Shown here: positions 4,923 to 59,696 of the stretch, in pieces
Numbering within the stretch: the stretch's first letter is position 1
How the letters are laid out: each line of letters opens with the position of its first letter
Virus record (IMG/VR): IMGVR_UViG_3300030040_000144
Location: 37,244 to 101,243 of that record
Length of the DNA stretch: 64,000 bases
DNA from: a virus
Reading direction: 5' to 3' (one strand)
Notes under the pieces: generated by a model
Databases searched by the model: none
What the model was told of the DNA's origin: nothing
What the model saw: the letters and a program-made list of their open reading frames with translations, nothing else
Program-made: the position numbers and the translations under genes

Positions 4923-6401
4923 ATGAATTGTGTTAGCGCACCACAGGAAGTTTTAAAAGGGAGGCTTACCTACATAGATGCGTACCCTACGGCGTTCCCC
5001 GCATACGGATACGGCAACTATGCTGGTTACGAAGATGCAATGCCTCAATCAGATGCGCAGACTAACCGATGGAGCAGCACTGAGAACAGCAGCAACAACA
5101 GCTGGAACAGTAACTTCAACAGCGGCAACATCAACAACAACAACAAGTACAACAGGTTTAGAGTCCGTCCCGTCGTCGCTTATGATACTCCTATAGACTT
5201 TCTCGATCTAGTACTGGAGGCTTTTTATGACTGCTGTCGTCGTAAGCGTACCAGTCAAGCGTGCATAGACTATATGCAGATAGCCAACGAAGACCTGCCC
5301 GCATTGGCGCACGAGCTGTACACCGGCACATACCAGCCTGGTGTGAGCACGTGTTTTTTGGTAAAATATCCTAAATATAGAGAGGTGTTCGCGGCTTGTT
5401 TTCGTGACAGAATCGTACATCATTTTTTATTCATTATACTCAATCCTCACTTTGAAGAAAGATTTACAAAACAAGGTAACGTGTCGTTCAATTGCCGTAA
5501 AGGTTTCGGAACACTTGCTGCGCAGCGTGCGGTAGCTAAAGCCATGCGCGAAGCAACCGACGGTTATCGCAAAAAAGCATGGATATACCGCGGCGATATA
5601 GTATCGTTCTTCATGTCTATAGACAAGCGCATCCTATGGCGCAAGCTGGAGCCGTTCATCAACACTCATTATAACGGTCCGTACCTGGCGCAGGTAATAG
5701 CTGTGGCCCGTGTAACGGTATTCCATTGCCCCGAACATAACTGCGTGTTCAATACCGACCCCGCCGAATGGAAAGACCACATAGAGACCCTGAAATCACT
5801 CTTTGGCAATACAGACCACTTCGGTATGCCTATAGGCAATCTTACCACGCAACTTTTTGTGAACTTCTTTATGTCGTTCTTCGATGAGTTTGTCATCGCG
5901 TGGTTCAGTGCCCGCGGCTATCGTGTGTACTACGTGCGTTTTGTCGATGACTTCATAGTGATATGCGTAAGCCGTACCGTGCTCAAGGTATTCGTAAAGA
6001 GCGCGCGCGTGTTCATGTATGCCGAACTCGGCATAGAGCTGCATACAGACAAGTACCACTTCCAGCCCGCCTCGCACGGGGTAATGTTTGTGGGAGCCTA
6101 TATAAAGTTCGGCCGCATATATCTGTCTAACCGTACACTGGCACGTTTTACCGAGCGCGTTTACGGTTTCAATGAATTGCTCAATAATAAAGACCAAATC
6201 ACCATAACCGACCTTTGCCGCATAGAGCAGGTAGTGAACTCCTATTTAGGCTTTTGCCGCGACAAGCGCACCTACAGCATCCGCCGCGCCATACTGTTTA
6301 CGTTCTGCCGTGCCTTTTATGAGTACTTCTACATTAAAGGCCACTATGACGGCATCCGCCTTCGCACCGCACATAAACCTATAAAAACCACCGCATCATG
6401 A
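4923..6401 (+). CDS. DGR-type reverse transcriptase. The functional start is probably downstream of the TR, around 5185-5275; the track ORF start at 4923 includes the TR in frame.
   Basis: RT motifs are present: YVRFVDDFIVI (YxDD box, ~nt 5931-5960) and IGNLTTQLF (DGR-RT-specific [I/L]GxxxSQ-like motif). The gene is about 400 aa after the TR and sits directly 3' of the TR. Confidence 0.9.
   Translation: MNCVSAPQEVLKGRLTYIDAYPTAFPAYGYGNYAGYEDAMPQSDAQTNRWSSTENSSNNSWNSNFNSGNINNNNKYNRFRVRPVVAYDTPIDFLDLVLEAFYDCCRRKRTSQACIDYMQIANEDLPALAHELYTGTYQPGVSTCFLVKYPKYREVFAACFRDRIVHHFLFIILNPHFEERFTKQGNVSFNCRKGFGTLAAQRAVAKAMREATDGYRKKAWIYRGDIVSFFMSIDKRILWRKLEPFINTHYNGPYLAQVIAVARVTVFHCPEHNCVFNTDPAEWKDHIETLKSLFGNTDHFGMPIGNLTTQLFVNFFMSFFDEFVIAWFSARGYRVYYVRFVDDFIVICVSRTVLKVFVKSARVFMYAELGIELHTDKYHFQPASHGVMFVGAYIKFGRIYLSNRTLARFTERVYGFNELLNNKDQITITDLCRIEQVVNSYLGFCRDKRTYSIRRAILFTFCRAFYEYFYIKGHYDGIRLRTAHKPIKTTAS
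5055..5181 (+). repeat. DGR template repeat (TR), 127 bp
   Basis: The invariant partner of the VR. Adenine-rich, with many AAC codons in the VR reading frame (encodes ...NSSNNSWNSNFNSGNINNNNKYN...). It lies immediately upstream of, or within the 5' extension of, the RT ORF. Confidence 0.9.
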
Positions 6402-7620: not shown

Positions 7621-10600
7621 ATGATGACCGAAGCCACCACCAAAGACTATTGGATTTCGCCCCAGGCGCTGCGCCTTGAGCCTAACGCGTTGGGCAACCC
7701 CGACTATCTGCAAGCCTCGTGCACCGCCGGAGCGCAGATACTGGTTTACGTAAAAGACATCATAGGCTACGATGCAGGACACAACTACCGCCGATGGCCG
7801 CTGCAAGCCTCGCCCACTGTATTTAACACCCATACCATCAAGTACGTGTACGCCGCCATACCGCGCACTACTGATGCCGGACGCACCGCCCAGATAGTGT
7901 TCCCCTCAGAGCGCATAGACATATACGGTCTGAATGAAGCGGAAGAACAGAAGGGCAACCCTGACTACTACTACATATTCCTTCAGGGAATACTAACCGC
8001 ATCGGGCGATAACGGCACCACCAAGCGCACGTGGCAGCAGCGTGTAGCCACGGGCTACCTGTCGTCGGACGAAGCGGTGAATGCCGGACCGTCTGACACC
8101 GAGTGGTATCAATACAGCACCGTAGATGGCATAGTGACGTTCCTGAAGAACCTCGCCATGAAAGCCGGAACGGAGTTCGTGCAGCTGTTTGCCCGTACGC
8201 TTACCATCGTTTCGGGCGGACGGATAGAGTTTGAAGGACAAGACGGAGGCGTAACCGGGATGGCCGATGCCACCACCCCCGAAACCGCCGCCGACAAGAT
8301 AGTGACACCGCAGTACATGGACGACAACGCCCTGTCAAAGCGACACGATGACGAGACCCCGTACAGCCTGGGAGCGAAAGACCTTGTGGCACGTCGCGAC
8401 CTCGACGTGTTCGGCAACACACGCCTTCACGGGCCGCTTACCGTAGGGCAGTACAATAAGGGAGTGGAAGGAGCGCACGTAGATTTTTACGGCAATGCCG
8501 AGTTTGAAAGCATAGTGAGCCGCAGCTTCATCGAGTCGCCCGAACTGCGCTATAACCGCACCACCATTACCGTGGGCAATAAGTGGCAGACCAAGGGTGC
8601 CGGAATCATAGAGCACGTGTGGAACAACGCCAACCTCGACGGTTCTCCTCTAAGTGCCAACACTCGCGGCGTGGCGTGCCTCAAGCTTGAGCCGGGCGAA
8701 GCCGGAGCTATAGCTGTAGACGACAAGTGCCAAGGCGTGTTCCATATAGACGGAGCCAAGAACGATCCATCCACCACCGACTCGCGCGACGGAAATTTCC
8801 ATTTCGCCGGCTTTACCACCATATACTTCGTCATTACCGAGATATACACTGCCGATACGTTGCCGCAGTACATAAAAGACCGGCTCAGTCCCACCGATAC
8901 CGTAGGGCAGAACCAATACTTCGCGTACGAACTTAGAGCCGCCACATGCGCCGCGTTACCACCCGAAAACCGCGATTACTGGACCGATGCCACGCATCCG
9001 CAGCCCGGTATGCACTTTGCCGCATACGCCAACGCCACCAATGCCGACCGTCAGGCTTCGCGCCTTACCACCACCACATACCAGCTGCATTTGGCAGGTA
9101 TGACGGGCTGGACCTACACCGAAGCCAACATGCGCCTCATTATAGGATGGCTCACGGGATTTTCTTTCCTTCAGCGCGTATGGGACAACACCAAGGGCGA
9201 GTTCGTTGAAGTAACCAAAGAACTGAACGGCGAAGGCATAGCCACGGGCAACATTTACATGTGGGGCAGCATAGACCAGTTCGACCGCGTGCCGCAGCTT
9301 GTGGCGCAGCAACCCTACTACAAGAGCACGGAGACCGCCGACCCTCCCGAGGGAATCATACTGAGCACCGACGGTACGCCACATTACGAGCTTAACGGCT
9401 GGAGCGCCGATGCCATAACGCCTACCGCCACCGCAAGAATAGTGTGGCAGCAGTGGCTTTACACCTACAGCGATGGCACTTACCGTACCGGGCAGGTAGC
9501 GTTTCATGCCGCCCACCCCACGGCACTAACAGTACTGCCAAGCCAGAGCATAGTGAGCGTGGCACTGAGCGACTGGTACGACACTGCGCACCCCGACGAC
9601 ATCGAGATAAACCTCAGCGCACGCCTCATGGCAGGCAGTGAGCCCGTGGCCATAACCGAAGCCACTGCGCAGTATGCCGACGGTAACTCCGGCTCCGGTG
9701 CAACCATAGACACTGCCGGAAGCTCCATCACCATCAGCGATGACGGCACTACCGCACAGTTCCGTCTCAAAATAAAGGGTTACGTTGGTGTAACGGTAGA
9801 CGGCACCACCCCCGAAGATTCCTACATAACGCTAACGCTTACCTCCGCCGTGGGTACAGCAAGCGGCATGGTAGCCATAGCGCAGAACCGCGAGGGCGAG
9901 CAGGGAAAACCCGGCGAGCAGGGAAAACCCGGAGCAGCGGGCATTACCGTGCGCCGCACGGAGTGGGAAGAAGGCGTGCAGTACCGCAACGACTCTTCCG
10001 CCGCTACCGCCGCTCCCGACGGGCAACGCTATCTTGACGAGGTATCAGTAACCAGTCTCGCCACCGGAACGGCGCAATGGTACGTGGCGCGCCCCACGCA
10101 TAACGGAATGACTTCTTCGGCAGCCAACAAGCCGTCCACCGCAGCCGGAAACGACTGGTGGGAACCCGTGAACGACATGCGCCCATTGCGCACCTCGTTT
10201 GCCGACATCATGACCGCCTTCATAAAGTTTCTCCAGGTAAACCAGATACAGATAACCGACGACGACGGCACTCCTTACGGAGCCTTCGGAGGCGGCACGG
10301 ATATGGAATACCCGTTGTGGTTCGGGGGAAAGACTTATGCCGATGCCGTAACCAAGTTCAACCGTCAGGGCGACGCATGGATAGGCAAGAACTTCAGCGT
10401 GGTAAACGGAGCCGTGACGTGCGATGCCGGAGAGTTCAACAACGTAAAGGTGAAAGGAGATTCCGAGTTCTCCGGAACACTGAAAGGTGTTTCCGGCTCG
10501 TTTAGAAAACTGAACTGCGTAAACGACAACGGCGAGTCTGTAGGAGGTATCTCGTTCGGTTCTACAGGGAGGATGTATTTCTCTGGCGACCTGCTTAGTC

Positions 10601-11121
10601 GAGGTTACAATTACGACCTCGACCGCAGTTATCGTTTCTACACAAGCGACATCTGGTGCGCGGGTAATTTCGGGCATAACGGAAAAACGGTTGCCGTGGT
10701 TGTCAAAGACGAGATGCGGGTGTATACCGACGACAAGAACTATGAAACCGTGAAGCTACCTCAGAAGTTTATCGCCGGAACTTCAAACAAGTATTACGAG
10801 ATACGTCTGTACAATTCCGGTTATGAAGATTCTCCGGAAAGCGACACGGCCGGTCTTCCGATTGACGTAGTTGTATTCTCGCAGTCGGATGACTGGTACT
10901 ATGTGTTCATACCGTACGGAAAAGGCAAGGAGTTTACCATCATTAACGCCAACGACAGAAGCAGCATACACTACGCCGACACAATGGGATGGAAAGAACT
11001 GAACGGCGGTCTGTCAAGACATTGCGTTTATATTGACCCCTCATGGCTTTACCCCGTTCCGCCAACCAGCTATCTCGGGCGTGGCGTATTCACCGTCGAT
11101 TCAGATTTGGACTGGGAATGA
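7621..11121 (+). CDS. Tail fibre / receptor-binding-like structural protein with a short collagen-like segment
   Basis: 1166-aa ORF rich in Thr/Gly/Asp, with GEQGKPGEQGKPGAAG Gly-X-Y repeats at ~nt 9895-9945. It is adjacent to the DGR target gene. No VR-like sequence at its 3' end. Confidence 0.5.
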   Translation: MMTEATTKDYWISPQALRLEPNALGNPDYLQASCTAGAQILVYVKDIIGYDAGHNYRRWPLQASPTVFNTHTIKYVYAAIPRTTDAGRTAQIVFPSERIDIYGLNEAEEQKGNPDYYYIFLQGILTASGDNGTTKRTWQQRVATGYLSSDEAVNAGPSDTEWYQYSTVDGIVTFLKNLAMKAGTEFVQLFARTLTIVSGGRIEFEGQDGGVTGMADATTPETAADKIVTPQYMDDNALSKRHDDETPYSLGAKDLVARRDLDVFGNTRLHGPLTVGQYNKGVEGAHVDFYGNAEFESIVSRSFIESPELRYNRTTITVGNKWQTKGAGIIEHVWNNANLDGSPLSANTRGVACLKLEPGEAGAIAVDDKCQGVFHIDGAKNDPSTTDSRDGNFHFAGFTTIYFVITEIYTADTLPQYIKDRLSPTDTVGQNQYFAYELRAATCAALPPENRDYWTDATHPQPGMHFAAYANATNADRQASRLTTTTYQLHLAGMTGWTYTEANMRLIIGWLTGFSFLQRVWDNTKGEFVEVTKELNGEGIATGNIYMWGSIDQFDRVPQLVAQQPYYKSTETADPPEGIILSTDGTPHYELNGWSADAITPTATARIVWQQWLYTYSDGTYRTGQVAFHAAHPTALTVLPSQSIVSVALSDWYDTAHPDDIEINLSARLMAGSEPVAITEATAQYADGNSGSGATIDTAGSSITISDDGTTAQFRLKIKGYVGVTVDGTTPEDSYITLTLTSAVGTASGMVAIAQNREGEQGKPGEQGKPGAAGITVRRTEWEEGVQYRNDSSAATAAPDGQRYLDEVSVTSLATGTAQWYVARPTHNGMTSSAANKPSTAAGNDWWEPVNDMRPLRTSFADIMTAFIKFLQVNQIQITDDDGTPYGAFGGGTDMEYPLWFGGKTYADAVTKFNRQGDAWIGKNFSVVNGAVTCDAGEFNNVKVKGDSEFSGTLKGVSGSFRKLNCVNDNGESVGGISFGSTGRMYFSGDLLSRGYNYDLDRSYRFYTSDIWCAGNFGHNGKTVAVVVKDEMRVYTDDKNYETVKLPQKFIAGTSNKYYEIRLYNSGYEDSPESDTAGLPIDVVVFSQSDDWYYVFIPYGKGKEFTIINANDRSSIHYADTMGWKELNGGLSRHCVYIDPSWLYPVPPTSYLGRGVFTVDSDLDWE

Positions 11122-25593: not shown

Positions 25594-25910
25594 GTATTTT
25601 GTGCATTTGTGTAATTGTGCAAACGTGCAATCGCATAAAGACACGAAAACATATTTGTGCAAATACACAAATGCACGCACAAACACACAAACGCATAAAC
25701 AAACGCATACACGTACAAATCAACAAACGAACAAACAAACAAACGAATAAATACATGCACATATAAACACACAAACGCATGAACAAACATACATGCGTTT
25801 ATACGCATACATAAACAAACAAATAAACACATACACACATACATGCACGCATAAACGAACAAACAAACGCATAAACATATAAACAAACATACGTTTGTGC
25901 TTGCTTATAT
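25594..25910. repeat. Degenerate CAAAC/ACAAACG microsatellite-like repeat tract, with an inverted GTTTG copy at 26020-26100. A candidate centromere (parS) or host-factor-binding array upstream of parA.
   Basis: About 300 nt composed almost entirely of caaac(g/a)/acaca units. The flanks gtgcatttgtg..gtgcaaacgtgca recur at 25601 and 26049. A similar tract lies at 59620-59690. Confidence 0.55.
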
Positions 25911-26183
25911 GAATTTTAATTTTTAAATTTGCAATATCAAAACACGGAGGCAGTAATGGAGGTGCCGTATGGCTCATCCCTCTGCTGAACCTTGACGACA
26001 GTACACCGTGAGCGCGTGCAAACGTGCGTTTGTCTGTCTGTTGGTTTGTGCATTTGTGCAAACGTGCATTTGTTGGTTTGTGCATTCGTGTATTGATTTA
26101 TGTGCTACCCCCTGGTGCATACGTGCTTTTAATGAAGCTTGATAATAAATTTTATAAATTAATTAGAAATACTTTTTTAGACT

Positions 26184-27053
26184 ATGGAAGAAAAACTTAA
26201 AGAAGTGCTCGCCTTCGTGAATCACAAAGGCGGAGTAGGTAAGACAACAACAGTGCAGAGCCTTGCAGCCGGGCTAAGAACTTTCGGCAAAGGTCAGTTC
26301 GGTAAAGATAAAGACGGCAACGACCGCATCCCCCGCGTACTTATAATAGACCTCGATCCGCAAGCGTGTGTTTCGTTTCTCTCCGGTTGGAGTGAAACAA
26401 AGAACGTGGGCAAACCCACCATGTACGATGCGCTGGTGCAGCAAAGTCAGATGCCGGTGTATAAGGTAAACGAAGGTATATACCTGGCTCCGGCTTCGAG
26501 CCGACTGATAGGTATAGAGCCGTTCCTCAATCAGATGGCAGTCCCCAGAAAGGCGTTGTGTAAGCTGCTGGCTAAACCATTAATGGAAATGGAAGGTACG
26601 GAGCTGCACGATGAAGGCACTTTTAATGTGAACGAGGCGTTCGACTACGTGCTGATAGACTGTCCTCCTGCCATGTCGCTTCTTACATACAACGCACTTA
26701 CAGCGGCTACCAGTGTGGTACTGCCAGTGCAACTTGAAATGCTCGCTACAAAAGGTATAGCCGAGATTATCAATGCCGTAAAAGAAACTCGCGAAGACCT
26801 GAATCCCGACCTCGACATCAGAGGCTTGCTTATGGTCATGAGCAACGATCAAACCAAGGCTACCAAGCAGTTCAAAGAATATCTGGGAGACAAATTTGGT
26901 GATTATATGTTCGACTCTTATACTCGCCGTGACACCAAGATGGTAGAAGCCCAGGCTATGAACGAAGATATATTTTCTTACGCCCCACAGAGCAGGGTAG
27001 GCGAGGACTATGAAAATTTTACTAAAGAAATCATGGCTAGTATGCCACAATGA
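26184..27053 (+). CDS. parA: ParA/Soj-family partition ATPase
   Basis: Deviant Walker A VNHKGGVGKTTT near the N-terminus. 289 aa. Confidence 0.85.
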   Translation: MEEKLKEVLAFVNHKGGVGKTTTVQSLAAGLRTFGKGQFGKDKDGNDRIPRVLIIDLDPQACVSFLSGWSETKNVGKPTMYDALVQQSQMPVYKVNEGIYLAPASSRLIGIEPFLNQMAVPRKALCKLLAKPLMEMEGTELHDEGTFNVNEAFDYVLIDCPPAMSLLTYNALTAATSVVLPVQLEMLATKGIAEIINAVKETREDLNPDLDIRGLLMVMSNDQTKATKQFKEYLGDKFGDYMFDSYTRRDTKMVEAQAMNEDIFSYAPQSRVGEDYENFTKEIMASMPQ

Positions 27054-27577
27054 AATGTTTAACCGCGTTAATATTATACTTTATGGCAAGACCTGTAACA
27101 TCTAAGGTCAAGAAATTCAGCTTGACCGAATCGGAAGTAGTAGAAGAAAACGAACGCATACTATCTCAGAAGACAGAACGGCATACACCTGCCGCTAAGG
27201 AGGAAACCGCACCGCACGATACCGCTCAGCCCGATACCGAACCGCAGCAATCCGATGCAGTGCAACCGCAGGCAACTACACAGACTGCTACATCTACGCC
27301 TCAGTCTGTAGCCGTGACTCCGGAAACCACACCGCAGCAGCCCGCACCAACGGAACAGACCTCTTCCGCCTCTGTCGGATCTCCGGCGACCGACGGACTG
27401 GAGGAGCTGGCGGCTATGCGCAAGCCTAAAGGCAAGAAAACGGAAAACGGAATCACGGTTTATGTGCCGATGGAGTACTATGAGCGCATTGCCTTAATGA
27501 AAATGCGCACCGGAATACCTATTCGGGATTTGGCTCTGCAAGCCGTCATTGAGTTTATTGATAGGAATATGGCATAA
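27050..27577 (+). CDS. ParG-like ribbon-helix-helix centromere-binding protein with a disordered Pro/Thr/Gln-rich N-terminal region
   Basis: Overlaps the parA stop (ATGA). The C-terminal GITVYVPMEYYERIALMKMRTGIPIRDLALQAVIEFI has an RHH (beta-alpha-alpha) pattern. Confidence 0.45.
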   Translation: MKCLTALILYFMARPVTSKVKKFSLTESEVVEENERILSQKTERHTPAAKEETAPHDTAQPDTEPQQSDAVQPQATTQTATSTPQSVAVTPETTPQQPAPTEQTSSASVGSPATDGLEELAAMRKPKGKKTENGITVYVPMEYYERIALMKMRTGIPIRDLALQAVIEFIDRNMA

Positions 27578-27662
27578 ACCTACGTTTTTGTGCACCAAAA
27601 CCTCCCTTTTTGTGTACCTAAACCTCCGTTTTTATGTACGTAAACCTCCCTTTTTGTTTACC
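27576..27662 (+). repeat. Four 22-bp iterons (aaacctcc[c/g]tttttgtgtacc), the inverted set
   Basis: Four tandem copies with 22-bp periodicity. They are the reverse complement of the set at 27844-27930. Confidence 0.7.
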
Positions 27663-27843
27663 AAGTGCGTTGTAAACACTTGATTTACAAATAATTCTGA
27701 ACCTCTTAATATAAGATAATATAATAGGTTTTTTATTGTTATTGATTATATAAAAGAGTATATACTATAGATATAACAGTTTATATTATATTATATTAAG
27801 GGATTTATTACAGACTGATTATTAATGGTTTACATGATAGTTG

Positions 27844-27930
27844 GTACACAAAAAGGGAGGTTTAAGTACACAAAAAGGGAGGTTTTGGTACACAAAAAGG
27901 GAGGTTTAAGTACACAAAAAGGGAGGTATG
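27844..27930 (+). repeat. Four 22-bp iterons (gtacacaaaaagggaggttt), the direct set abutting the rep start
   Basis: Four tandem copies. The two sets flank a ~180-bp, >80% AT segment (27663-27843), a putative DNA-unwinding element. The rep ATG follows within 20 nt. Confidence 0.7.
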
Positions 27931-27946
27931 AAAAAAGATAGAAGAC

Positions 27947-29524
27947 ATGGCTAAGAAGAAAAAAACAGAAGACGAGGTAAGACTTGCGCTTGAAGACCAT
28001 TGCTGGATCAATACTCCGGTAGCTTACACTATATATAGCAAGAGCTTTTCGCTGGTGCAGCAGGATGTGATGCTGCAAGTTAGCGGTAAGCTCCAGAGTC
28101 ACTTCTCCAAGTTCCTGAACGAGCAGCGTTATCTAAATAAAGAAGATCCTCAGAGCGGTATAGCCGCAGAAGACCTCGCAAACATAGAACCTATACGTTT
28201 GCGTTTGGCCGACCTCGGAATCAGCAGTAACCACTATGACGAGGTGGTGCAGAAAGTCAATGATATAACATCCATAACTTTTAGGCTTCCGCGTTTCGAC
28301 GTGAAAACCGGGCTGCGTAAAGGTGACGACTATATGCCTATATTCAGTAAGATTTTTATTCCTAAGAGTTTTGCCACAAAAGAAGGTAATTCTTACGGCT
28401 ATAACGGAAGCAACATAAAGACCGACGAGGAAGGCAAGGTGATAAGCGATTTCAGACGCGACGGTTTTGTGGAGGTAACTATCAATATAGAAGCTGCGAA
28501 AGCTATTTTTAACATGAACAGAGGCTATATCAACCACCTGGAGCGTATAGCGTTTTTCTGCAACTCGGTGTTTACGTCGCGGCTTTATCTGCTTTTAATG
28601 AAGTACGTCAGCAAAGGACAGATGCACCCCTCTATAGACTATGTAGAACTGAAAGACTTTCTCGGTATGTATGAAAGGCAACCAAAATCGGATGTCGTAG
28701 TGAACGAGAAATATCAGAAATTCTCTCAGTTCCGAAAGCAGGTACTGAACGTGGCACGCCGTGACATGGAGCGTCTTTGCGCCGAAAACAAGATAGAAAT
28801 AATGTTGCAGTGCACGGCGGAGTGCGAAGACGGCTATGAGCCGCTTTATAAAGGCACGGTGAAGCGTGGCAACCCTGAAAAGATACGCTTTCATATAAAG
28901 CGTACTCCGCTCGGTGTAGCACGCGAGATGGAAGTGCACAGAGGTTCATCAGAGCAGCGTCTGTGTGATAAAATAATGGAGCGTTACCCTACGCTCGACG
29001 AGCAGAGACTGATAGCTTTTGTAGCCGATGTGCCGGAAGATCTGTGGTCGGACTTCAAGAAGTACGCCTACAATGGAGTGCCCAAGGCGGTAGAAAGCCC
29101 ACATCAGTGGGACGGTACTCCCGAAGAATTTATTTTCTACATCATGGGCCAATGGGTGGATAGCCGCAAGAGAAAAGCCACTCCTGTAGCGCAGCAGCCG
29201 AATTTGTTCAGTCAGTCTGATTTTGCCGTCCCGATTCCCCTAGTTCCTGTAGTTGAAGACTACCCCGGAAAGTATGCCGAAGAATGGCAGACGTTCATGT
29301 CGCAGTACGATGGTGCATTGAAGCCGTTGCTTATGCAAGCTACGCACTATGGAGCTTCAGCAGCCGGATTCATGTCGATACGTTTTCCTGATCGGAAAAC
29401 ACTTGATGCCTTTAACGCAGAGTGCGACAAGAACAAGGCTGCATACACCGAGCTTATGGCACTTCTGTCTCAGCTTATAGGTAAAGCCGCCGCACGTGTA
29501 TTAGTGCGAGGCGTGGCCGACTGA
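27947..29524 (+). CDS. rep: Plasmid-type replication initiator (Rep)
   Basis: 525-aa ORF immediately downstream of the iteron/AT-rich origin and of parA-parG. Basic N-terminus. No contrary motif. Confidence 0.55.
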   Translation: MAKKKKTEDEVRLALEDHCWINTPVAYTIYSKSFSLVQQDVMLQVSGKLQSHFSKFLNEQRYLNKEDPQSGIAAEDLANIEPIRLRLADLGISSNHYDEVVQKVNDITSITFRLPRFDVKTGLRKGDDYMPIFSKIFIPKSFATKEGNSYGYNGSNIKTDEEGKVISDFRRDGFVEVTINIEAAKAIFNMNRGYINHLERIAFFCNSVFTSRLYLLLMKYVSKGQMHPSIDYVELKDFLGMYERQPKSDVVVNEKYQKFSQFRKQVLNVARRDMERLCAENKIEIMLQCTAECEDGYEPLYKGTVKRGNPEKIRFHIKRTPLGVAREMEVHRGSSEQRLCDKIMERYPTLDEQRLIAFVADVPEDLWSDFKKYAYNGVPKAVESPHQWDGTPEEFIFYIMGQWVDSRKRKATPVAQQPNLFSQSDFAVPIPLVPVVEDYPGKYAEEWQTFMSQYDGALKPLLMQATHYGASAAGFMSIRFPDRKTLDAFNAECDKNKAAYTELMALLSQLIGKAAARVLVRGVAD

Positions 29525-31299: not shown

Positions 31300-31707
31300 C
31301 TACCCTTGGTTCTCAAGGTATTTCTTGATGGTTTCTTGACTAACATTCCCTATGGATGAAACGAAATAACCGTCTGTCCAAAAAGTGTGTTCTTTGTAGA
31401 AATTGTGCCTGAGAAAATCACCATACTTTTTCCAAATGGCAGTAGTGGACATCTGCTTTAATCGCTTGACAATCTGTAGTGGTGACAGTTTAGGTACACT
31501 TCTGACCATCATGTGCAAGTGGTCTTTGTCCGTTTCCATAACTTCAATATCAAAGTCGGACATTTCTGATATGTTCCGCATGATATTCTTCATGTCGTGT
31601 TCGATTGCTCCGACAAGCAACTGCTTTCTGTATTTACATACGAAAATGACATGATACTTGATGAGGAATTTAGAGTGGTTCTTTGAAATGTATTCTTTCT
31701 GAATCAT
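31300..31707 (-). CDS. tnpA: IS200-like Y1 (HUH) transposase TnpA
   Basis: 135 aa. HUH motif HLHMMV and the catalytic Tyr region GYFVSS. Confidence 0.85.
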   Translation of the reverse strand: MIQKEYISKNHSKFLIKYHVIFVCKYRKQLLVGAIEHDMKNIMRNISEMSDFDIEVMETDKDHLHMMVRSVPKLSPLQIVKRLKQMSTTAIWKKYGDFLRHNFYKEHTFWTDGYFVSSIGNVSQETIKKYLENQG

Positions 31708-31742
31708 AACGTTTTCTGATTTTAAATGATTAACTTTGCATT

Positions 31743-32984
31743 ATGTTACGAACATACAAATATAGAATATATCCGACAGATGAGCAGAAGGTCTTGTTCG
31801 CAAAGACTTTCGGCTGTTGCCGCTTTGTCTATAATTGGGCTTTGAACATGAAAATCACAGCATACAAGGAGCGCAAGGAAACTCTTGGCAACGTGTATCT
31901 GACCAACTTGATGAAGAAGGAACTGAAGAGGGAATACGAATGGCTCACGGAGGTTAATTCACAGTCGTTGCAGAGCGCATTGCGCAATCTTGATACGGCT
32001 TACACAAACTTTTTCCGCAACACGAAAGGCGTTGGTTTCCCCCGTTACAAGTCGCGCAAGGACAGGCAGAGTTTTCTATGTCCCCAACATAGCCGTGTCG
32101 ATTTTTCCAAACACACAATAACCATACCAAAAGCAAAAGACATACCCGCAGTTTTGCACCGCAAGTTCAATGGTACAGTGAAGACTGTTACTATAAGCAT
32201 GACACCTTCGGGCAGATACTTTGCTTCTGTTCTTGTGGATACGGATATACAGGAAATCCCAAAGTCGGCAACGAACTCCAGTACAACCATTGGCATTGAC
32301 CTTGGCGTCAAGACTTTGGCAGTATGCTCCGACGGACGGACCTTTGACAATCCCAAGAACTTGCGCAAAGGTCAGAACCGCCTTGCGCTGTTGCAAAAGC
32401 GTCTGAGCCGTAGGCAGAAAGGCTCTTCAAACAGGAACAAGGCTCGCATAAAGGTCGCCCGTTTGCAAGAACGCATATCCAACCAACGTAAGGACAACCT
32501 TCACAAAATTACCCATACACTCACGCACGACAGCCAAGTGCGTACCATCTGCATGGAGGATTTGAATGTGAAAGGCATGACACGCAATCACCATTTGGCT
32601 CAGTCAGTGGCCGACGCTTCCTTTGGCATGTTCCTTACGATGTTGGAATACAAGTGCAAGTGGTATGGTGTGAATTTGGTAAAGATAGACCGTTTTGCCC
32701 CAAGCTCGAAGACTTGTGGCAAATGCGGCTATGTGTACAAAGGATTGAAGTTGAGCGAGCGCAGTTGGGAGTGTTCCGTTTGTGGAACACGCCACGACCG
32801 CGACTATAACGCAGCTTGCAATATCAAAGAGTTTGGCTTGAAAGCCCTACCCACGGAACGTGGGAAAGTAAAGCCTGTGGACTGCCCTCTTGTGGATGGC
32901 CGACCTCGTGTCCTAAAAAGCAATGGCAGGAAGAAGCAGGAAAAGCGAGGAGGTGCAGTATCTCCGAAGCCGCTAAGTCTTTAG
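31743..32984 (+). CDS. tnpB: TnpB (IS605 OrfB; RNA-guided RuvC-like nuclease)
   Basis: 413 aa. C-terminal CGKCGYVY...CSVCG zinc finger and a RuvC-like DNACNI segment. Its 3' end abuts the right-end hairpin, where an omega-RNA would be encoded. Confidence 0.85.
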   Translation: MLRTYKYRIYPTDEQKVLFAKTFGCCRFVYNWALNMKITAYKERKETLGNVYLTNLMKKELKREYEWLTEVNSQSLQSALRNLDTAYTNFFRNTKGVGFPRYKSRKDRQSFLCPQHSRVDFSKHTITIPKAKDIPAVLHRKFNGTVKTVTISMTPSGRYFASVLVDTDIQEIPKSATNSSTTIGIDLGVKTLAVCSDGRTFDNPKNLRKGQNRLALLQKRLSRRQKGSSNRNKARIKVARLQERISNQRKDNLHKITHTLTHDSQVRTICMEDLNVKGMTRNHHLAQSVADASFGMFLTMLEYKCKWYGVNLVKIDRFAPSSKTCGKCGYVYKGLKLSERSWECSVCGTRHDRDYNAACNIKEFGLKALPTERGKVKPVDCPLVDGRPRVLKSNGRKKQEKRGGAVSPKPLSL

Positions 32985-33832: not shown

Positions 33833-34330
33833 ATGACAAAAGAAAATATTGAAAAAATATCGGTTACGTTCGCTTTTTTTGGTATTGAAGAGATTTCGGC
33901 GGAAGAGAAGAAGCGTTTAATTGATTTTTTATCAGATAAAGGCTTTTCTTCTACTACTTTTTATCTGCGATTCTTTCAGAAAGGCTTTGCTCAGTGGGAG
34001 ATTATAGGAGTAAACGAATGTAAAAGACAGTTTTTAGCTATACCAGAAATAGCTCAGCTATTGTTGGAATACGTAGATTCTGATGCAGAAAAAGAAAACC
34101 GGGGCTATCTCTACACGTTAGCCTTGAATAATGAGGCAGGTTCTTTCTATAATAGTCTTAAACGAGTAAACAACGGCCTCTGTATGAAGTTCATTGACTT
34201 TATGCAGCAGAGAGGCATGAGCACCGGCACGGTGATAAAGAGATTCTCGTCGGACAACTGGAAGCCTTGGGAGGTGGACGGAATAACCAATTTGCTTTGT
34301 CAGTACAATGAAAAACAATCAGCATCATGA
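33833..34330 (+). CDS. Hypothetical protein (first early gene)
   Basis: 165-aa ORF. Confidence 0.35.
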   Translation: MTKENIEKISVTFAFFGIEEISAEEKKRLIDFLSDKGFSSTTFYLRFFQKGFAQWEIIGVNECKRQFLAIPEIAQLLLEYVDSDAEKENRGYLYTLALNNEAGSFYNSLKRVNNGLCMKFIDFMQQRGMSTGTVIKRFSSDNWKPWEVDGITNLLCQYNEKQSAS

Positions 34331-34992
34331 TAGATATTACTTTCGACCTTGAAACTTGCGCACGTTGTCCCAACGCTGCGGTCATGAGCATTGCAGCTCA
34401 AGTGTGGAACAGACACGCCAACGGCTCGCCGTTTACGGAATGGCATCCCGATGCCGAACCAAGATACAAGACTTTCTATTCACATATAGACTTGCGAGGC
34501 ATGTTTCTTGACGGTTTTTCGTTCGACAGTGCTACGGCGCAGTGGTGGAAGCAGCAAAGCCCCGAAGCTAAGGCGGAAGTGCTGGCAAATGATAGCGACG
34601 ACAGCCCATGTGTGCCTATAAATACCGCTATTGAAAACTTTTTCGACTGGATAAAAGACATCAGTCAAGAAACCGCCGATGAGGTTTTTTTATGGTCGCA
34701 AGGTACCGACTTCGACGTGGCTATATTACGCAATATCTGCTACCGATACCGCCTTGAGACTCCGGTGAAGTACACAAACTACAGAGACCACCGCACCTTT
34801 TTCATGGAAGGCGCTAAGACTATATGCGATGTGGCAGGTTCGGACTTCGACCCAAAACATGCTTATACGCTTGTAGACGAGTACGACGGAGAAGGAGTGC
34901 AGCATTCGCCTCTGTTCGACTGCCGTCGCAGCATATACTCTACGTGGCAGATGATGACTCATCTTAGATGCCTCGGTAAAAGTGGAGACTGA
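34327..34992 (+). CDS. DnaQ-like DEDD 3'-5' exonuclease
   Basis: Exo I IDITFDLETC, Exo II SQGTDFDVAIL, Exo III HSPLFDCRRS (DEDDh-like). Confidence 0.6.
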   Translation: MIDITFDLETCARCPNAAVMSIAAQVWNRHANGSPFTEWHPDAEPRYKTFYSHIDLRGMFLDGFSFDSATAQWWKQQSPEAKAEVLANDSDDSPCVPINTAIENFFDWIKDISQETADEVFLWSQGTDFDVAILRNICYRYRLETPVKYTNYRDHRTFFMEGAKTICDVAGSDFDPKHAYTLVDEYDGEGVQHSPLFDCRRSIYSTWQMMTHLRCLGKSGD

Positions 34993-43616: not shown

Positions 43617-44801
43617 ATGAAACTACAAGCCAAATCATCAAAAGAACTCAATAAGGCACTGCGCAAATCGGCAAAATGTATGGCAAATAAAAACGCCCTG
43701 CCTATCCTTGACAACGTACTGCTGTCAATGAACGCCGACGGCCGTTTCTGTTTCACTACCTCTACCGGCGATGCGCAGCTTTCCATCCCTGCACCGCTTA
43801 CCATATTCGACGGCAAGTTTACCGCCCCCGTGGCGTTACCGCTCAGCATCATCACTTCGTTTCTGGCGGCTCTGCCTGAGTGTACCGTGACACTTGTGTT
43901 CGATGAGAAATCCAGCACTCTAACATTTGAATATTGCACCGAGGTAGGCGACAAGGTAAAAGAAGGAGAGGTATCTGTGGCTTACTACGACGGTAAGGAG
44001 TACCCTCTGCTGAAGCCCGCTACCGAGAACTGCACATACATTTCTCTGCCGATGGCGGTATTGAACAGCGTGCTCGCCCAAGCTAAAGACTTCATCAAGA
44101 TAGACGACCTCCGCCCTGTAATGAACTGCCTGTGCATAGATATAGCCGACGACCTTTCTGAACTGAACTTCGTAGCCAGCGACGGCAATACTCTCTACCG
44201 CCGCACATACAGCAACGATCCTGCCAAAGGCGGCGGTGAGTTTTTCCGCAGTGGTGAAGCGTGCCGTATTCTGGTAAGCCTGCTCTACTTCCGCACGCTG
44301 TCGGCATTCGACGGGTGCGACACCGTAGACATACAGACCGATGGCCGCACCATCTATTTCTCCGCTCCCGATGTAGAGCTTACATGCCGCGCCATAGAAG
44401 GTCGCTACCCCAACTACCGTGCCGTGATACCTACGGGTAATCCATACTATATATGCGTGGGTAAAGCGGAAGCGTTGGCAGTATGCTCGCGCGTAAGTCT
44501 TTTCTCTGACAGAAGCAACAATAACATCGTGCTGAAGAAAGAAGGAATGTTCCTTAACGTGTCGGCGCGAGACCTTGACTATTCTACCGCCGCCGAAGAT
44601 CAGGTGCTGATAGCCGACAACGAATGTCAGGACGGCTTTAGCATAGCGTTCAACGTACAGAAGTTTATTACTGCCATGAGTGCCATTTCAGCCGACGGTG
44701 TGCGTATACAGATGTCAGAACCTAACCGCGCGGTGGTGATTACCGCCAACAGTCCGGTCCCCGACACACTTACGCTATGTATGCCTATGCTGATAGACTG
44801 A
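43617..44801 (+). CDS. dnaN: DNA polymerase III beta sliding clamp-like protein
   Basis: 394 aa. N-terminal ...ALPILDNVLL... resembles the conserved DnaN LPILsNVLL segment. The length is typical of a three-domain clamp. Confidence 0.65.
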   Translation: MKLQAKSSKELNKALRKSAKCMANKNALPILDNVLLSMNADGRFCFTTSTGDAQLSIPAPLTIFDGKFTAPVALPLSIITSFLAALPECTVTLVFDEKSSTLTFEYCTEVGDKVKEGEVSVAYYDGKEYPLLKPATENCTYISLPMAVLNSVLAQAKDFIKIDDLRPVMNCLCIDIADDLSELNFVASDGNTLYRRTYSNDPAKGGGEFFRSGEACRILVSLLYFRTLSAFDGCDTVDIQTDGRTIYFSAPDVELTCRAIEGRYPNYRAVIPTGNPYYICVGKAEALAVCSRVSLFSDRSNNNIVLKKEGMFLNVSARDLDYSTAAEDQVLIADNECQDGFSIAFNVQKFITAMSAISADGVRIQMSEPNRAVVITANSPVPDTLTLCMPMLID

Positions 44802-49625: not shown

Positions 49626-51420
49626 CGTTGTGATAAGAGGGCACTGAAAAAGTAATCACTATTCAGAGTTCTCTGAGGATTATATGAAAAATATAGAGTT
49701 CGTCAACTCCTTATCCGAGGACTTGACGAACTCTGATTTTTATCGATAGGTAGGTTATATGACTCTGTATTGACTCTAATCAGCCATGTGCAGCCTTATT
49801 CTGGGATAATGATGAGCAGTCCTCAGCTCAGTTTGAGGATTCTTTTTATATTTGCAACAAAAATCACCATTGCCCCTTGCATACGCATACAGTCCAGACC
49901 ATACGAGTCTGCACGGTCGTATCCAAATACATTCTTCAATTCTGCGTTTTTGGCCTCGATTTTATATCGGATTTTAGCCTTTGTCTTGAACTCCTCTGTT
50001 TGTTCAAAGTCGGCTTGCTGCAGATGCTCTCCCGATTTAATCTGCACGGCATAAGACTTGCTTTTGGCCCCTTCTTTATAACATCCGTTCCGCCGTGAAC
50101 ATGTTCTGCATTTCTCTACATCAAAGTAGAAGACAAGTGACTGGTTCTGTTTCTCTCCCTTCTTTCCCTGTCGCGCTTTTCTTATCGCCATATGCCCGGC
50201 CGGACAAACATACATTCCGGCATCCTTGTTATAATCAAAACGGTCTTCTTCCTTACGCGTGCCATTGCTGATTGTCGGATTTAATCTGGCAACCAGCTCA
50301 AAACCATTTTCTTTGTCATTTGAAAGTATTATGTTGTCTTTGCCCGAGTACGCAGTGTCGCCGACTACTGTATCAACGACCATGCCGTTGGTGCGGCTCT
50401 GCTCTACAAGTTCCTGAAGCTGGGGGCCGTCCCCTTTCTCTCCGGAGGTGACTGTCGCAGCCGTTATGATGCGTTCATCACTCATTGCGATATGGGTCTT
50501 ATATCCGAAGAAAGAGGCATCCTTACTCTTGTGCCCAATCCTGGCATCCTCGTCCTTGGACGTTACATAATGGTCTTCAATATCTGAAAGTACCTCCTTA
50601 AGCATGTTAAGACGCTCCTTGATTTTAGGAACTTCTGCAAGACAGGGATTGGAACCTACGACATTCAGCAGATTTTTGGTGTAGTCAAGCTCATGTTCCA
50701 GATTATCATCCGTGTTCTTTTCAGGAAGAGTATTTTTGATAGTCTCGTCTGATTCATACAGACATTTGCGCAACTGTTTTGAGCGAAGCCGCAATATCTC
50801 AACCGGGGAATAAGGATTGCTTCGTGAGCCGGTGTGGGTGGCATCAACGATTATAGTACGTGATTTGATTATTCCTTTTTCAATTGCAATCTCAACGGTT
50901 TTGCCAATCAGAAGATTCAACAGGGCCTTGTCTTTTAGTCTAAGCTTACGGAACTTACACAGAGAACTGGGATTTATCAGGTCCGTGTTTTCTGGACTCA
51001 TCCCAAGAAAATACTTGAAAGACATATCATAACGGGACCTCTCTACAACATCAACATCGGATATGTCATAAATTGTCTTCAGAAGAAGATATTTGAACAT
51101 CATTACAGGGCTTTCAGCCATGCGGCCATTGTCATGGCAGTATTTATCCATAAGTTCTTTTTGGATGAAGGAGAAGTCCACAAGGTCATTAATCCTGCGC
51201 AGAACATTATCGCTAGGAATAATCAAATCGTATAAATCACTGTAATTGCTGAATTGTATTGTCTGTTGAGTCGGGAGCATTTCTTTGTGTGTTATATCTA
51301 TAAAGATACGCAAAAATCGGCATATATCCAAAATGTTTATTGGGTATATGCCGATTATATCAGACAATTATCCTATGAAAGGACTTTTTCAGTGCCCTCT
51401 TGTGATAACGTCCGTTTTTT
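49626..51420. mobile_element. IS1182/IS5-like insertion sequence
   Basis: Terminal inverted repeats of ~38 bp: aaaaaacgg[c/a]cgtt[g/a]t[g/c]a[t/c]aagagggcactgaaaaagt at 49626-49663, and its reverse complement at 51383-51420. They bracket a single DDE transposase gene. Confidence 0.7.
49823..51367 (-). CDS. DDE transposase (IS1182/IS5-like family)
   Basis: 514 aa. N-terminal ...DLVDFSFIQKELMDKYCHDNGRMAESPVMMFKYLLLKTIYDISD... is typical of IS1182-type transposases. Confidence 0.7.
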   Translation of the reverse strand: MSDIIGIYPINILDICRFLRIFIDITHKEMLPTQQTIQFSNYSDLYDLIIPSDNVLRRINDLVDFSFIQKELMDKYCHDNGRMAESPVMMFKYLLLKTIYDISDVDVVERSRYDMSFKYFLGMSPENTDLINPSSLCKFRKLRLKDKALLNLLIGKTVEIAIEKGIIKSRTIIVDATHTGSRSNPYSPVEILRLRSKQLRKCLYESDETIKNTLPEKNTDDNLEHELDYTKNLLNVVGSNPCLAEVPKIKERLNMLKEVLSDIEDHYVTSKDEDARIGHKSKDASFFGYKTHIAMSDERIITAATVTSGEKGDGPQLQELVEQSRTNGMVVDTVVGDTAYSGKDNIILSNDKENGFELVARLNPTISNGTRKEEDRFDYNKDAGMYVCPAGHMAIRKARQGKKGEKQNQSLVFYFDVEKCRTCSRRNGCYKEGAKSKSYAVQIKSGEHLQQADFEQTEEFKTKAKIRYKIEAKNAELKNVFGYDRADSYGLDCMRMQGAMVIFVANIKRILKLS

Positions 51421-51438: not shown

Positions 51439-53433
51439 CTATCTTCCGTTAGGCATTACGAAACAGTAGCCGCCGCATCTGAACAGCTTGCAACCCAGAT
51501 AAAGCGTGTCGAAGGCATCGGTAAAGTCGGTTCTCTGCTGAAGAGGAAGCGTATCTTCGCTTTCCGGCTTTTTTTCCTGACTCTTGTCTTTCTGAAATCC
51601 CTTATACGAAATTTTCACCTCGCACAGCTGCATGGCTATGATAAGGTCGGCATTGTTCTGCTGGTTTATGCGGATAGCCGGAAACGACAGATGAGCCAGA
51701 GCGTCGTTTATGATTTTATGCTTCAGGTCGTGCCGCTCCGGTGCTCCCATGTCTATGCCCGTAACCGCCCATCCGTACCGCTCTAATTCCTGCATCACCG
51801 TCATGTAGAAGCGTTCGTCGGTGCTGGCGTACGACGCGCCCTGCTTTGCCGTAGCGTCATAGAAATACGTCACGTCTCGGTTGATGGAACGCTTCGGGGC
51901 GTAGTATGCCGAAAAGTCGGCTATAAGCTCACGCAGCTTGCGCTCGTTCTTCACGTAGAAACTCTTTATCACGTTAAGACACTCCATCCCGTCGCGCTCA
52001 TATATCTGCCCGACCACAAGCGTGTTGATGTTAGCGTTATAGTCGAGGGCTATATATAAAGGAAGGGAGTTGATGCAGTCGGCATCCATGCGGCAGTCGT
52101 TGCGCTCCGACAGTTCCTTGAAGTCGGGCTGATAACTCTCTGACGTGATTTCCCGTCCACCGATGATGCCTGACACCTTTTGCGTAGTGAATTTGGCGGA
52201 CGACAGAGGGTCTATCTCGTCGGGAATATAACCGTGCACGTGGTCTATATCGAGGTTAGAGTAAAAGCCGTCGTTGCTCTTCTGCATTTTCATGTTGAGA
52301 ATCGAGACCATGAAGGTGTAGTTCGGAAGATCTCTGCGCATGTCTCTTATGTAACTCTCAGTCAGAAGGTCCACATTGTCGAGGGTTGACGCGCGGCGCA
52401 CGCAGAAAGCCACACGGCGCAGCTCACGCAGATAGCCGTCAGAGAACTTCTTTGAGCGAAGAAACATCTGCATCTCAAAGTCCTCTTCGGGCGTGATAAG
52501 ATACTCGTGATCATAAACCAGCTCGGCATCGTCCTGCGGAATGAGTTTATAGTTGACAGCCATCTCTACCATGCCTTTTGTAACGTGCCGCCCGTGGTTG
52601 GGCATCATCTTGAACTGCCCCTCGTGTTTCATCATCTTCAGCGCCACGGCACGTATCATGGTGCGCAGTTCGGGCGGAACCACGTGTACGGAGTGTCCCG
52701 TTTTCCGAGCGTTGTACAGAAGGTCGTTGTAGCGTATCACCTTGTCGGCATACTCTTCGAGCTGCTGCTGCACCCAGCGGTAGGTTTTCCCTTTGAAGCG
52801 TCCTGTTTCTATCTCCAAGTCGAGTTTCTCTTCTTCCTTCTCCAACCACGAGCCTTTGGCCGTGAGCGATGCGTCCGAAAGAAAACGTGTTGACTTGTAC
52901 AGCGGATTATGATCCGTAAAGTTGATGTCGCCCAATGGGTGCGTCTGGCCCGAAAGTGCCGGCATCAGTTCGTCCGTCACCTTCTTGTACGGAAAGAAAC
53001 GGGCTTCGTCGCCTACCATGGCTGAGAAGGTGTAACTGTTAGCGCTGGCGGTCTGCGATAGCGAAATGAGTACCCAGCCCGCACCGTTGGCGAACCAAAT
53101 GTAATTATCGTAGTTCTTAGGCTTGAATATACTCTCGCGGGCATGTTTGGGCGGCCGCCCCCATCCGAAGTGCACGCCCTGCGTAAAGCCGAACATGCGC
53201 TCCATAGCCGCCATAGTGCTCGGAATGGTCTTACCGAAGCCCTGCTGACGGCTTACCGCCACCCACGCTCCCAGCATACCGGGCATGGAGTTCGAAGCCA
53301 TCCACACGTACGGGGCCACAAGTCCGTCGGTCTTACCCACACGGCGTGCGGCTATCACTCGTTCGTCCTTCGCCCCCATGTACAGCGACTGCTGCTGAAA
53401 TTTGGTAAGGTATATGTCGTGTGCTTTTTGCAT
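51439..53433 (-). CDS. terL: Terminase large subunit
   Basis: 664 aa. Walker A AARRVGKT and Walker B MVGDEARF in the N-terminal ATPase. The C-terminal half is Asp-rich and nuclease-like. Confidence 0.6.
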   Translation of the reverse strand: MQKAHDIYLTKFQQQSLYMGAKDERVIAARRVGKTDGLVAPYVWMASNSMPGMLGAWVAVSRQQGFGKTIPSTMAAMERMFGFTQGVHFGWGRPPKHARESIFKPKNYDNYIWFANGAGWVLISLSQTASANSYTFSAMVGDEARFFPYKKVTDELMPALSGQTHPLGDINFTDHNPLYKSTRFLSDASLTAKGSWLEKEEEKLDLEIETGRFKGKTYRWVQQQLEEYADKVIRYNDLLYNARKTGHSVHVVPPELRTMIRAVALKMMKHEGQFKMMPNHGRHVTKGMVEMAVNYKLIPQDDAELVYDHEYLITPEEDFEMQMFLRSKKFSDGYLRELRRVAFCVRRASTLDNVDLLTESYIRDMRRDLPNYTFMVSILNMKMQKSNDGFYSNLDIDHVHGYIPDEIDPLSSAKFTTQKVSGIIGGREITSESYQPDFKELSERNDCRMDADCINSLPLYIALDYNANINTLVVGQIYERDGMECLNVIKSFYVKNERKLRELIADFSAYYAPKRSINRDVTYFYDATAKQGASYASTDERFYMTVMQELERYGWAVTGIDMGAPERHDLKHKIINDALAHLSFPAIRINQQNNADLIIAMQLCEVKISYKGFQKDKSQEKKPESEDTLPLQQRTDFTDAFDTLYLGCKLFRCGGYCFVMPNGR

Positions 53434-55714: not shown

Positions 55715-55744
55715 GTGTATTCGTTTTATGTTATACTTATTGTT

Positions 55745-55870: not shown

Positions 55871-55882
55871 ATACCTATTACC

Positions 55883-59690: not shown

Positions 59691-59696
59691 GCAGAT

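Follow-up and report, generated by a model that had tools for sequence, protein, structure and literature searches.

We analyzed a 64,000-nt (64-kb) stretch of DNA catalogued as viral (IMG/VR record IMGVR_UViG_3300030040_000144, positions 37,244 to 101,243, hereafter the window). The region between a pair of partition (par) genes and the gene for a replication initiator (rep) is, with a probability of roughly 0.8, the replication origin (oriV) of a large element, probably extrachromosomal and of the Prevotellaceae, embedded in a par-ori-rep maintenance module. Two arrays of short repeats (iterons) face each other there across an AT-rich core that is a putative DNA-unwinding element (DUE). By function and initiator family the locus is an iteron-type origin, with the bilateral layout and an extended Rep protein as its departures; it is counted as a variant because two inverted arrays flank the core in place of one-sided direct repeats, and because Rep is extended. 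The original prediction, made from the letters alone, had been a classic theta-replicon oriV. Its iteron-type character stands on the Rep fold, the confinement of the repeats to the locus, the meltable core, conservation among relatives and co-variation of the repeats with Rep, but the layout is not the one-sided arrangement that the word classic implies. The repeats, the AT core, the Rep fold, the conservation and the Rep-iteron co-variation were all computed here.

Tandem Repeats Finder (TRF), run as the original prediction had proposed, recovered both arrays with a 22-bp period, on the left 4.0 copies with 82% matches at 27576-27664 and on the right 3.8 copies with 93% matches (100% if read as a 44-bp period) at 27844-27927. 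A repeat finder gave start-to-start spacings of 22, 22 and 22 bp, and reported inverted arms of 107 nt, 83% complementary, at 27578-27684 and 27821-27927. The 18-nt iteron core GTACACAAAAAGGGAGGT, allowing up to three mismatches, was matched eight times in the window, four times on the minus strand and four times, without a single mismatch, on the plus strand; all eight matches are at the origin, and shuffled sequences would be expected to give 0.05. The inverted arrays are confirmed as real and far beyond chance: the four plus four copies that had been predicted hold in count, coordinates and 22-bp phasing, although the left copies are degenerate and not exact. The mirror symmetry reaches beyond the iterons, because the left half and the reverse complement of the right half are 74% identical when aligned over the whole ~355 bp. 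The intervening segment of ~180 bp, which had been described as more than 80% AT, reaches that figure in its inner part only (82.4% at 27685-27820 and 84% at 27700-27805), the full 179 bp at 27665-27843 having 78.8%. Of all 60-bp duplexes in the window the least stable, 27739-27798, lies in this segment, at -55.6 kcal/mol against a mean of -84.0 (standard deviation 6.9), and as single-stranded DNA the core folds better than its shuffles (z = -2.8).

The open reading frame (ORF) at 27947-29524, which encodes 525 aa and starts 19 nt past the last iteron core, had been taken for rep, and this is borne out by a predicted winged-helix (WH1-WH2) fold matching those of R6K pi and F RepE. The window Rep scored 18.2 bits against Pfam Rep3_N, below the cutoff of 22.4 (E 0.0035), and among 32 members of its family Rep3_N was matched in 18 and Rep3_C in 9 at E <= 0.01. 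A profile of 32 Rep homologues had a single sequence-profile match in the PDB, the WH2 domain of R6K pi (2NRA, E 1.1e-5). An AlphaFold2 (AF2) model of Rep, with a predicted local distance difference test score (pLDDT) of 84.5, was matched by Foldseek to 2NRA, the complex of pi with iterons (E 5.9e-7), and to complexes of RepE54 with iterons (target template-modelling scores 0.62-0.69), and the top matches include the complexes of RepE with single-stranded DUE DNA, 8AC8 and 8AAN. These pi and RepE matches span about 305-320 aligned columns at a sequence identity of 11-15%. Because of the pi profile match, the Rep3_N and Rep3_C matches within the family and the AF2/Foldseek matches, residues 1 to ~320 are predicted with some assurance to be a WH1-WH2 iteron-binding initiator, and on sequence and model comparison Rep is placed as a divergent branch of the Rep_3/RepE/pi type initiators.

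The protein collection contains 114 relatives of Rep, hardly any of them annotated. A search seeded with 13 closer Rep sequences was among those used to find related loci; 96 loci in all (labelled with L-numbers) were fetched, from metagenome-assembled genomes labelled Prevotella sp. or Paludibacteraceae, human-gut metagenomes and IMG/VR; the relatives lie on 50-105-kb metagenomic and IMG/VR contigs that cluster at 85-105 kb. There were 70 loci that span the whole region, representing 52 distinct origin sequences, and in these 70, as in L004-L008, the order parA, small gene with a ribbon-helix-helix (RHH)-like product, left array, AT core, inverted right array and rep is kept, with an AT core of about 165-185 bp. 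Conservation in related elements, the lack of which was to count against the original prediction, is therefore what was found, the layout recurring in 52 distinct origins. The strict 4+4 pattern is present in 38 of the 52, and most of the others have in-phase degenerate copies or three copies on one side. The arms of an inner AT palindrome (TAATATAATATAA ... TTATATTATATTAAG) are near-invariant even where the iterons differ, while the centre between the arms varies. The repeat layout is not traceable in every branch of Rep, because one locus (L010, Rep 42% identical) has no recognisable iterons across 7.9 kb. Twelve related contigs, which include some of 75-102 kb, stop at scattered points 41-191 bp upstream of rep (L001, L002, L003, L009, L016, L035, L038, L040, L051, L063, L069 and L077), a pattern that fits short-read assembly breaks at an inverted-repeat origin. 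A partly duplicated origin was seen in L032, L033, L046, L047, L066, L070, L075, L082 and L084, in the order (for example L032, 1204-2500) one left iteron, AT core, two or three right iterons, a gene for a 185-aa lipoprotein-like protein, a complete 4+4 origin and rep. Recombination or insertion appears to have a hot spot at the origin.

Comparison of the repeats across relatives identifies the protein that probably reads them. Each iteron consists of a conserved half, GTAMAY (GTAAAC or GTACAY), and a variable half ~11 bp away, GGGAGG in the window. The window Rep (100%) goes with GTACAC-AAAAA-GGGAGG, and a Rep 69% identical to it with GTACAC-AAATA-GGGAGG (GTACACAAATAGGGAGG); at 64% identity one locus has GTACAT-AAATA-GGGAGG (GTACATAAATAGGGAGG, L053) and another an iteron ending in GGGAAC (L050). 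The major group of relatives, with Rep 57-63% identical, has GTAAAC-AAAAA-CGTAGG (GTAAACAAAAACGTAGG), and the cultured plasmids of Segatella copri, at 29-33%, have GGTAAAC plus CGTAGA or GTGGTT. At least four groups of iteron specificity are visible. Among distinct loci the Spearman correlation of iteron distance is 0.60 with distance between the Rep WH regions and 0.30 with distance between the RHH proteins. By these comparisons the iteron sequence appears specific to the cognate Rep, following the relatedness of Rep and not that of the RHH partition protein.

Table 1. Features of the window, those of the origin and the par-ori-rep module first (positions counted from the first letter of the window).
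Feature	Position	Strand	Remarks
Left iteron array	27576..27664	minus	four 22-bp units; 18-nt cores with 3, 0, 2 and 1 mismatches to GTACACAAAAAGGGAGGT
AT-rich core, putative DUE	27665..27843	none	least stable duplex at 27739-27798
Inner AT-rich palindrome, left arm	27700..27724	none	CTCTTAATATAAGATAATATAA; inverted repeat, 25 nt, 88% complementary
Inner AT-rich palindrome, right arm	27781..27805	none	TTATATTATATTATATTAAGGGA; pairs with 27700-27724
Right iteron array	27844..27927	plus	four 22-bp units; identical 18-nt cores GTACACAAAAAGGGAGGT
8-codon upstream ORF (MKKDRRHG*)	27928..27954	plus	overlaps rep start
rep residues 1-320, predicted WH1-WH2 iteron-binding initiator domains	27947..28906	plus	profile, AF2, Foldseek
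rep residues 321-435, helical region then disordered linker	28907..29251	plus	secondary structure, pLDDT profile
rep residues 436-525, C-terminal KH-like module resembling DnaA domain I and DciA	29252..29524	plus	
Candidate partition centromere	25598..26094	none	8-bp-period short repeats (GTGCA / ACAAACGCATAAAC types); upstream of parA
parA, ParA/MinD-type partition ATPase, 289 aa	26184..27053	plus	Pfam AAA_31 E 1.4e-35, CbiA
Small partition partner, 175 aa, RHH-like C-terminus	27050..27577	plus	ITVYVPMEYYERIALMKMRTGIPIRDLALQAVIEFIDRNMA; sequence pattern
IS200/IS605 TnpA-TnpB pair	31300..32984		135-aa TnpA homologue, 413-aa TnpB (OrfB_IS605); 1.8 kb downstream of rep
Exonuclease	34327..34992		
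DnaN-like beta-clamp (DNA polymerase III)	43617..44801		all three DnaN domains matched
DDE transposase	49823..51367		
Reverse transcriptase	4923..6401		RVT_1, E 2.5e-10; flanked by large ORFs 201-4250 and 7621-11121 without assigned function

Direct repeats on one side are found in plasmid pPS10 of Pseudomonas, the lactococcal pCI305/pWV02 group and Acinetobacter Rep_3 plasmids, several of which use DnaA boxes. The right half of the present origin resembles these Rep_3 plasmids: about four 22-bp iterons stand contiguously between an AT-rich region and rep, which lies directly downstream and encodes a WH1-WH2 initiator. It differs from them in the inverted second array across the AT core and the lack of a DnaA box, and in a Rep about twice as long, with an added helical region and, at its C-terminus, a KH-like module. 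A review (PMC10797057) likewise describes classic iteron origins as having their direct repeats to one side of the DUE. The best structural matches of the Rep model are R6K pi with its gamma origin and F RepE with ori2 (2NRA, 1REP, 7RVA, 8AAN), but in both of those origins the iterons are direct repeats beside the DUE and not facing arrays. Sites for an initiator do face each other across the unwound region in bilateral chromosomal origins and in the archaeal arrangement of origin recognition box (ORB), DUE and ORB, and a parallel to the origin of the archaeon Aeropyrum pernix is drawn in PMC13643167. Those origins, however, use DnaA or Orc1/Cdc6, AAA+ initiators unrelated to a WH1-WH2 Rep, and the likeness is an analogy of layout and not one of membership.

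The nearest annotated relatives of Rep, at 29-33% identity and named 'RepB family plasmid replication initiator', are encoded on complete circular plasmids of S. copri, unnamed2 of strain DSM 18205 (NZ_CP085934, 58.9 kb) and a plasmid of HDE06 (NZ_CP137558, 93 kb). Both share with the window 22-bp phased iterons having the GGTAAAC half-site. The DSM 18205 plasmid also has the succession parA, small ORF, inverted copies, AT-rich region, direct array and a rep ATG abutting the last iteron, but its two inverted copies are spaced and stand against seven direct ones, and there are further clusters downstream of rep; in HDE06 the iterons lie downstream of rep with no adjacent par genes. The balanced 4+4 mirror layout is in neither plasmid. 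There was no nucleotide match between the par-ori-rep region and the plasmids of PLSDB, and no match between the Rep protein and a phage collection. Large extrachromosomal elements of Prevotella and Segatella, the class to which these S. copri plasmids belong, have been described recently, without analysis of their replication or origins (PMC10635906). No description of inverted iteron arrays flanking a DUE, or of Prevotella iteron origins, was found in the literature, a search of incomplete coverage, which speaks weakly for novelty.

Binding, melting, helicase docking, bidirectionality and autoregulation are proposed here by analogy with better known systems, and the following sequence of events may be envisaged. 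Monomers of the 525-aa Rep would bind the eight 22-bp iterons through WH1-WH2, contacting two half-sites about one helical turn apart, GTAMAY, which is conserved, and GGGAGG, which is specific to the lineage, and the 22-bp phasing, close to two turns of the helix, would set all bound Rep on one face of the helix. The arrays face each other across the ~180-bp core, and each half can be read as four iterons, a spacer of ~35 bp and one TAATATAATATAA palindrome arm, mirrored in the other half. With iterons, spacers and palindrome arms all mirrored, the two halves would face opposite strands with identical geometry, as would suit the placing of one helicase on each strand. Rep assemblies on both sides would then bend and melt the core, and each assembly may hold one melted strand (loop-back) by analogy with RepE and TrfA. 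The binding of monomers to iterons, melting of the adjacent DUE and capture of single-stranded DNA is the mechanism in R6K- and F-type systems, and a loop-back model has been set out for Rep proteins (PMC10602881, PMC10797057). The C-terminal module of Rep would dock the host DnaB (or DciA), which would make DnaA boxes unnecessary, and one helicase on each strand would give bidirectional theta replication. In a reconstituted E. coli system, DnaB can be loaded by initiator clusters that flank a DUE (PMC13643167).

The step proposed for the C-terminus has its own evidence. The last 90 residues of Rep are modelled as a KH type II-like alpha-beta-beta-alpha-alpha-beta fold, whose closest structural neighbours are DnaA domain I and DciA at a sequence identity of 9-12%. 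The module is shared with a second Rep family of 393-399 aa, at ~64-69% identity in the alignment, while the WH part of that family is only ~30% identical to that of the window Rep; because of this disparity the module has the marks of an exchangeable unit, at least as judged from alignments. With up to one mismatch, no DnaA box (TTATCCACA, the E. coli consensus, assumed valid for Bacteroidota) was found at 27401-28000. In E. coli, domain I of DnaA recruits DnaB (PMC5448010). It is because the DnaA box is lacking and the C-terminus resembles DnaA domain I and DciA that Rep is proposed to dock the helicase, or DciA, by itself, a speculative step. A wider reading can be built on it, in which the element would have a DnaA-independent, plasmid-type initiator acting at a bilateral iteron origin, a WH1-WH2 Rep with an acquired DnaA-domain-I/DciA-like module, each facing array capturing one strand of the core and docking one DnaB, as a counterpart to the symmetric origins of archaea and eukaryotic viruses, and the module serving as a host adaptor exchanged among divergent Reps of gut Bacteroidales. 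Taken as a whole this wider reading is tentative and rather unlikely.

Autoregulation of rep through the Rep-bound right array is a reasonable inference, since most relatives have the rep ATG immediately behind the last iteron and the 5′ region of rep would cross Rep-bound DNA; Rep on the rep-proximal array would lie across that region and repress its own synthesis. In the major group the ATG is 0-2 nt after the last iteron. The window has an extra 19 nt at 27928-27946, between the last iteron and the rep ATG, that most relatives lack, and the 8-codon upstream ORF there looks like a degenerate duplicate of the 5′ end of rep. The more specific suggestion that the last iteron overlaps the rep promoter and ribosome-binding site is not supported in that form: 19 nt separate the last core from the ATG, the GGAGG that resembles a Shine-Dalgarno sequence lies within the iteron itself (and is CGTAGG in most relatives), and the rep strand gave no convincing match to the Bacteroidota -7 motif TAnnTTTG, one mismatch being allowed, within the right array or adjoining it, a point against this step of the scheme. 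Bacteroidota in any case rely little on Shine-Dalgarno pairing.

Several further observations weigh against the origin reading or against parts of the scheme attached to it. In the lineage of the window the left array is degenerate and the right one perfect, and the left may be a weaker or a purely regulatory site. Four assemblies with identical or 99%-identical Rep (L092, L093, L094 and L095) have 5, 2, 4 and 4 right iteron copies with an unchanged left array, so that the 4+4 symmetry is either not fixed or not reliably assembled; the right copy number (2, 4 or 5) may be truly variable, or short reads may have collapsed a perfect 44-bp period. With respect to helicase docking, the KH fold is widespread, and for DnaA domain I of B. 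subtilis, the best match of the Rep module, helicase binding is not known (PMC5448010). Genes on both sides of the origin are nearly all on the plus strand, a misfit with the co-orientation expected of bidirectional forks. GC skew, a check put forward with the original prediction, is compatible with an origin but not decisive: it changes sign near the locus, from -0.047 on the left to +0.073 on the right with a local minimum at 25,892, but a second, equally deep minimum is present at 13,728 (the two near-equal minima being at 13.7 kb and 25.9 kb), and the local minimum coincides with a C-rich block upstream of parA. Finally, circularity and extrachromosomal status are judged from contig sizes and from distant cultured relatives.

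The most serious alternative is that the right array and the AT core together form a working one-sided origin, like that of pPS10 or the lactococcal Rep_3 plasmids, and that the left array is a negative control that could titrate Rep, limit copy number by handcuffing or looping through Rep-Rep bridges, or block read-through from par. The right half alone has the standard order of AT-rich region, four 22-bp iterons and rep, and it is the left copies that carry mismatches (3, 0, 2 and 1) in the lineage of the window while the right are perfect. The first left iteron shares bases with the par operon's stop codon, the left copies of the major group have their own spacer (AATCC versus AAAAA on the right) and may differ in affinity, and the DSM 18205 plasmid, with two inverted left copies versus seven direct right ones, shows how uneven the two sides can be. 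A purely regulatory array is harder to reconcile with the retention of the left array in number, phase and distance in almost every relative, with the equally perfect arrays of L053, or with a mirror symmetry that extends to the spacer and the AT palindrome arms, as would be expected if both halves act on the core. We consider one-sided initiation with copy control a real possibility, if not a probable one, and a control role of the left array can coexist with action of that array on the core.

Improbable, by comparison with the origin reading, is the idea that the repeats are operators of a Rep-like transcription factor for rep and par, DNA synthesis starting elsewhere. There is room for this in so far as the window is 64 kb of an element of ~100 kb, encodes a DnaN-like clamp (43617-44801) and an exonuclease (34327-34992), and has relatives in a viral catalogue, making a separate lytic origin conceivable. 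Proteins of the WH1-WH2 fold are replication initiators, however; the window's least stable duplex lies between the repeats, and no further copy of the motif occurs in the window; and the AT palindrome is conserved regardless of iteron type, which is unexpected for a simple operator.

Some partition systems have centromere repeats downstream of the par genes, and the 22-bp repeats directly follow parA and the small ORF, whose stop codon is overlapped by the first repeat, inviting the alternative that they are a partition centromere bound by the RHH protein and not iterons of Rep. This is very improbable, and the centromere reading of the 22-bp repeats fails on their lack of co-variation with the RHH protein. 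There are two RHH types, which can be named by sequence (GITIYVPMEYY... and GIVVNVPMDDY...), one 82-91% and the other 50-56% identical to that of the window, and both were found with identical CGTAGG iterons; conversely, RHH domains 82-91% identical to the window's occur in elements bearing different iterons. A related rep on the HDE06 plasmid of S. copri is accompanied by iterons from the same half-site family, and the ~6 kb examined there holds no annotated par gene. The RHH type matches instead a separate set of 8-bp-period arrays upstream of parA. In the window these repeats (GTGCAnnn and ACAAACGCATAAAC) are densely arrayed between a lipoprotein-like gene and parA; the window and L090, alike in RHH type, have arrays of CAAAC/ATAAACA type, and L004 and L007, with the other RHH type, arrays of TACGT type. 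Because the motif differs by lineage and follows the RHH type, the upstream arrays are likely the partition centromere, a part of the replication-partition module but not of the origin.

The par genes themselves resemble a type Ib partition system, a class represented by ParF/ParG with parH of TP228, in which a small ParA is paired with an RHH centromere-binding protein. The likeness, which concerns the par genes and not the origin, consists of a small ParA without a DNA-binding extension at its N-terminus, an RHH-like partner and 8-bp-period arrays upstream of parA. The NCBIfam models for ParA partition proteins score below cutoff. The 175-aa partner has a low-complexity middle and no Pfam, NCBIfam or PHROG match, and its assignment as RHH is inferred from a sequence pattern. 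A second array of ACACAAAC(GCATAAA) with an 8-bp period occurs at 59632-59695, 33 kb from the par genes, and may be a second centromere-like site.

Large inverted repeats are typical of fold-back assembly chimeras, of the ends of small mobile elements and of hairpin-telomere resolution sites of linear plasmid-prophages, and 12 related contigs end just upstream of rep, but any of these explanations is hardly credible for a structure present in 52 distinct sequences from different studies, with arms only 83% complementary and reproducible differences between left and right, contig breaks that are scattered instead of falling at the dyad centre, arms built from tandem 22-bp units co-varying with Rep, and no transposase or protelomerase seen beside it, a fold-back artefact being ruled out because independent assemblies with identical or 99%-identical Rep share the same degenerate left array.

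The element that carries this origin may be a plasmid or a phage-plasmid. Contigs with an identical Rep reach 97.7 kb and those with Rep relatives up to ~98-105 kb. IMG/VR lists 40 of the related loci (L050-L089) as viral, on contigs of 50-102 kb, and a search of ~30 ORFs of the window against PHROGs and Pfam gave no recognisable virion protein. There was a weak terminase-like match at 51439-53433 (E 3e-4), with no PDB sequence match. Besides the genes listed in Table 1, the window encodes an HNH nuclease, methyltransferases and many proteins without a family; Rfam and tRNA scans of the window found nothing. The reverse transcriptase may belong to a diversity-generating retroelement or be of a defence type. 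The assignment of TnpA in the IS200/IS605 pair comes from a Y1_Tnp match on the corresponding gene of L093, and L007 has a resolvase-TnpB pair at a similar position. Near the origin in relatives there are genes for an NAD-type DNA ligase and an Rv2179c-like exonuclease. At 55739-55883, immediately upstream of a radical-SAM gene (55883-56902, minus), there are two more families of tandem repeats, one of palindromic AAACAATGCCCATTGTTT units and one of ATAAGGTTATGCCTATTACCTTG (~3 copies, 93%), and they look like operators.

Prevotella and Segatella are dominant gut bacteria across much of the world for which there are few genetic tools, and the par-ori-rep module of ~3.9 kb (25598-29524) is a candidate backbone for a shuttle vector and a candidate marker for incompatibility typing. 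This inverted-repeat origin also repeatedly breaks short-read assemblies of these elements. The placing of two helicases for bidirectional replication is now being studied with engineered variants of E. coli oriC (PMC13643167), and a conserved origin that has initiator sites flanking the DUE is a natural test case for it.

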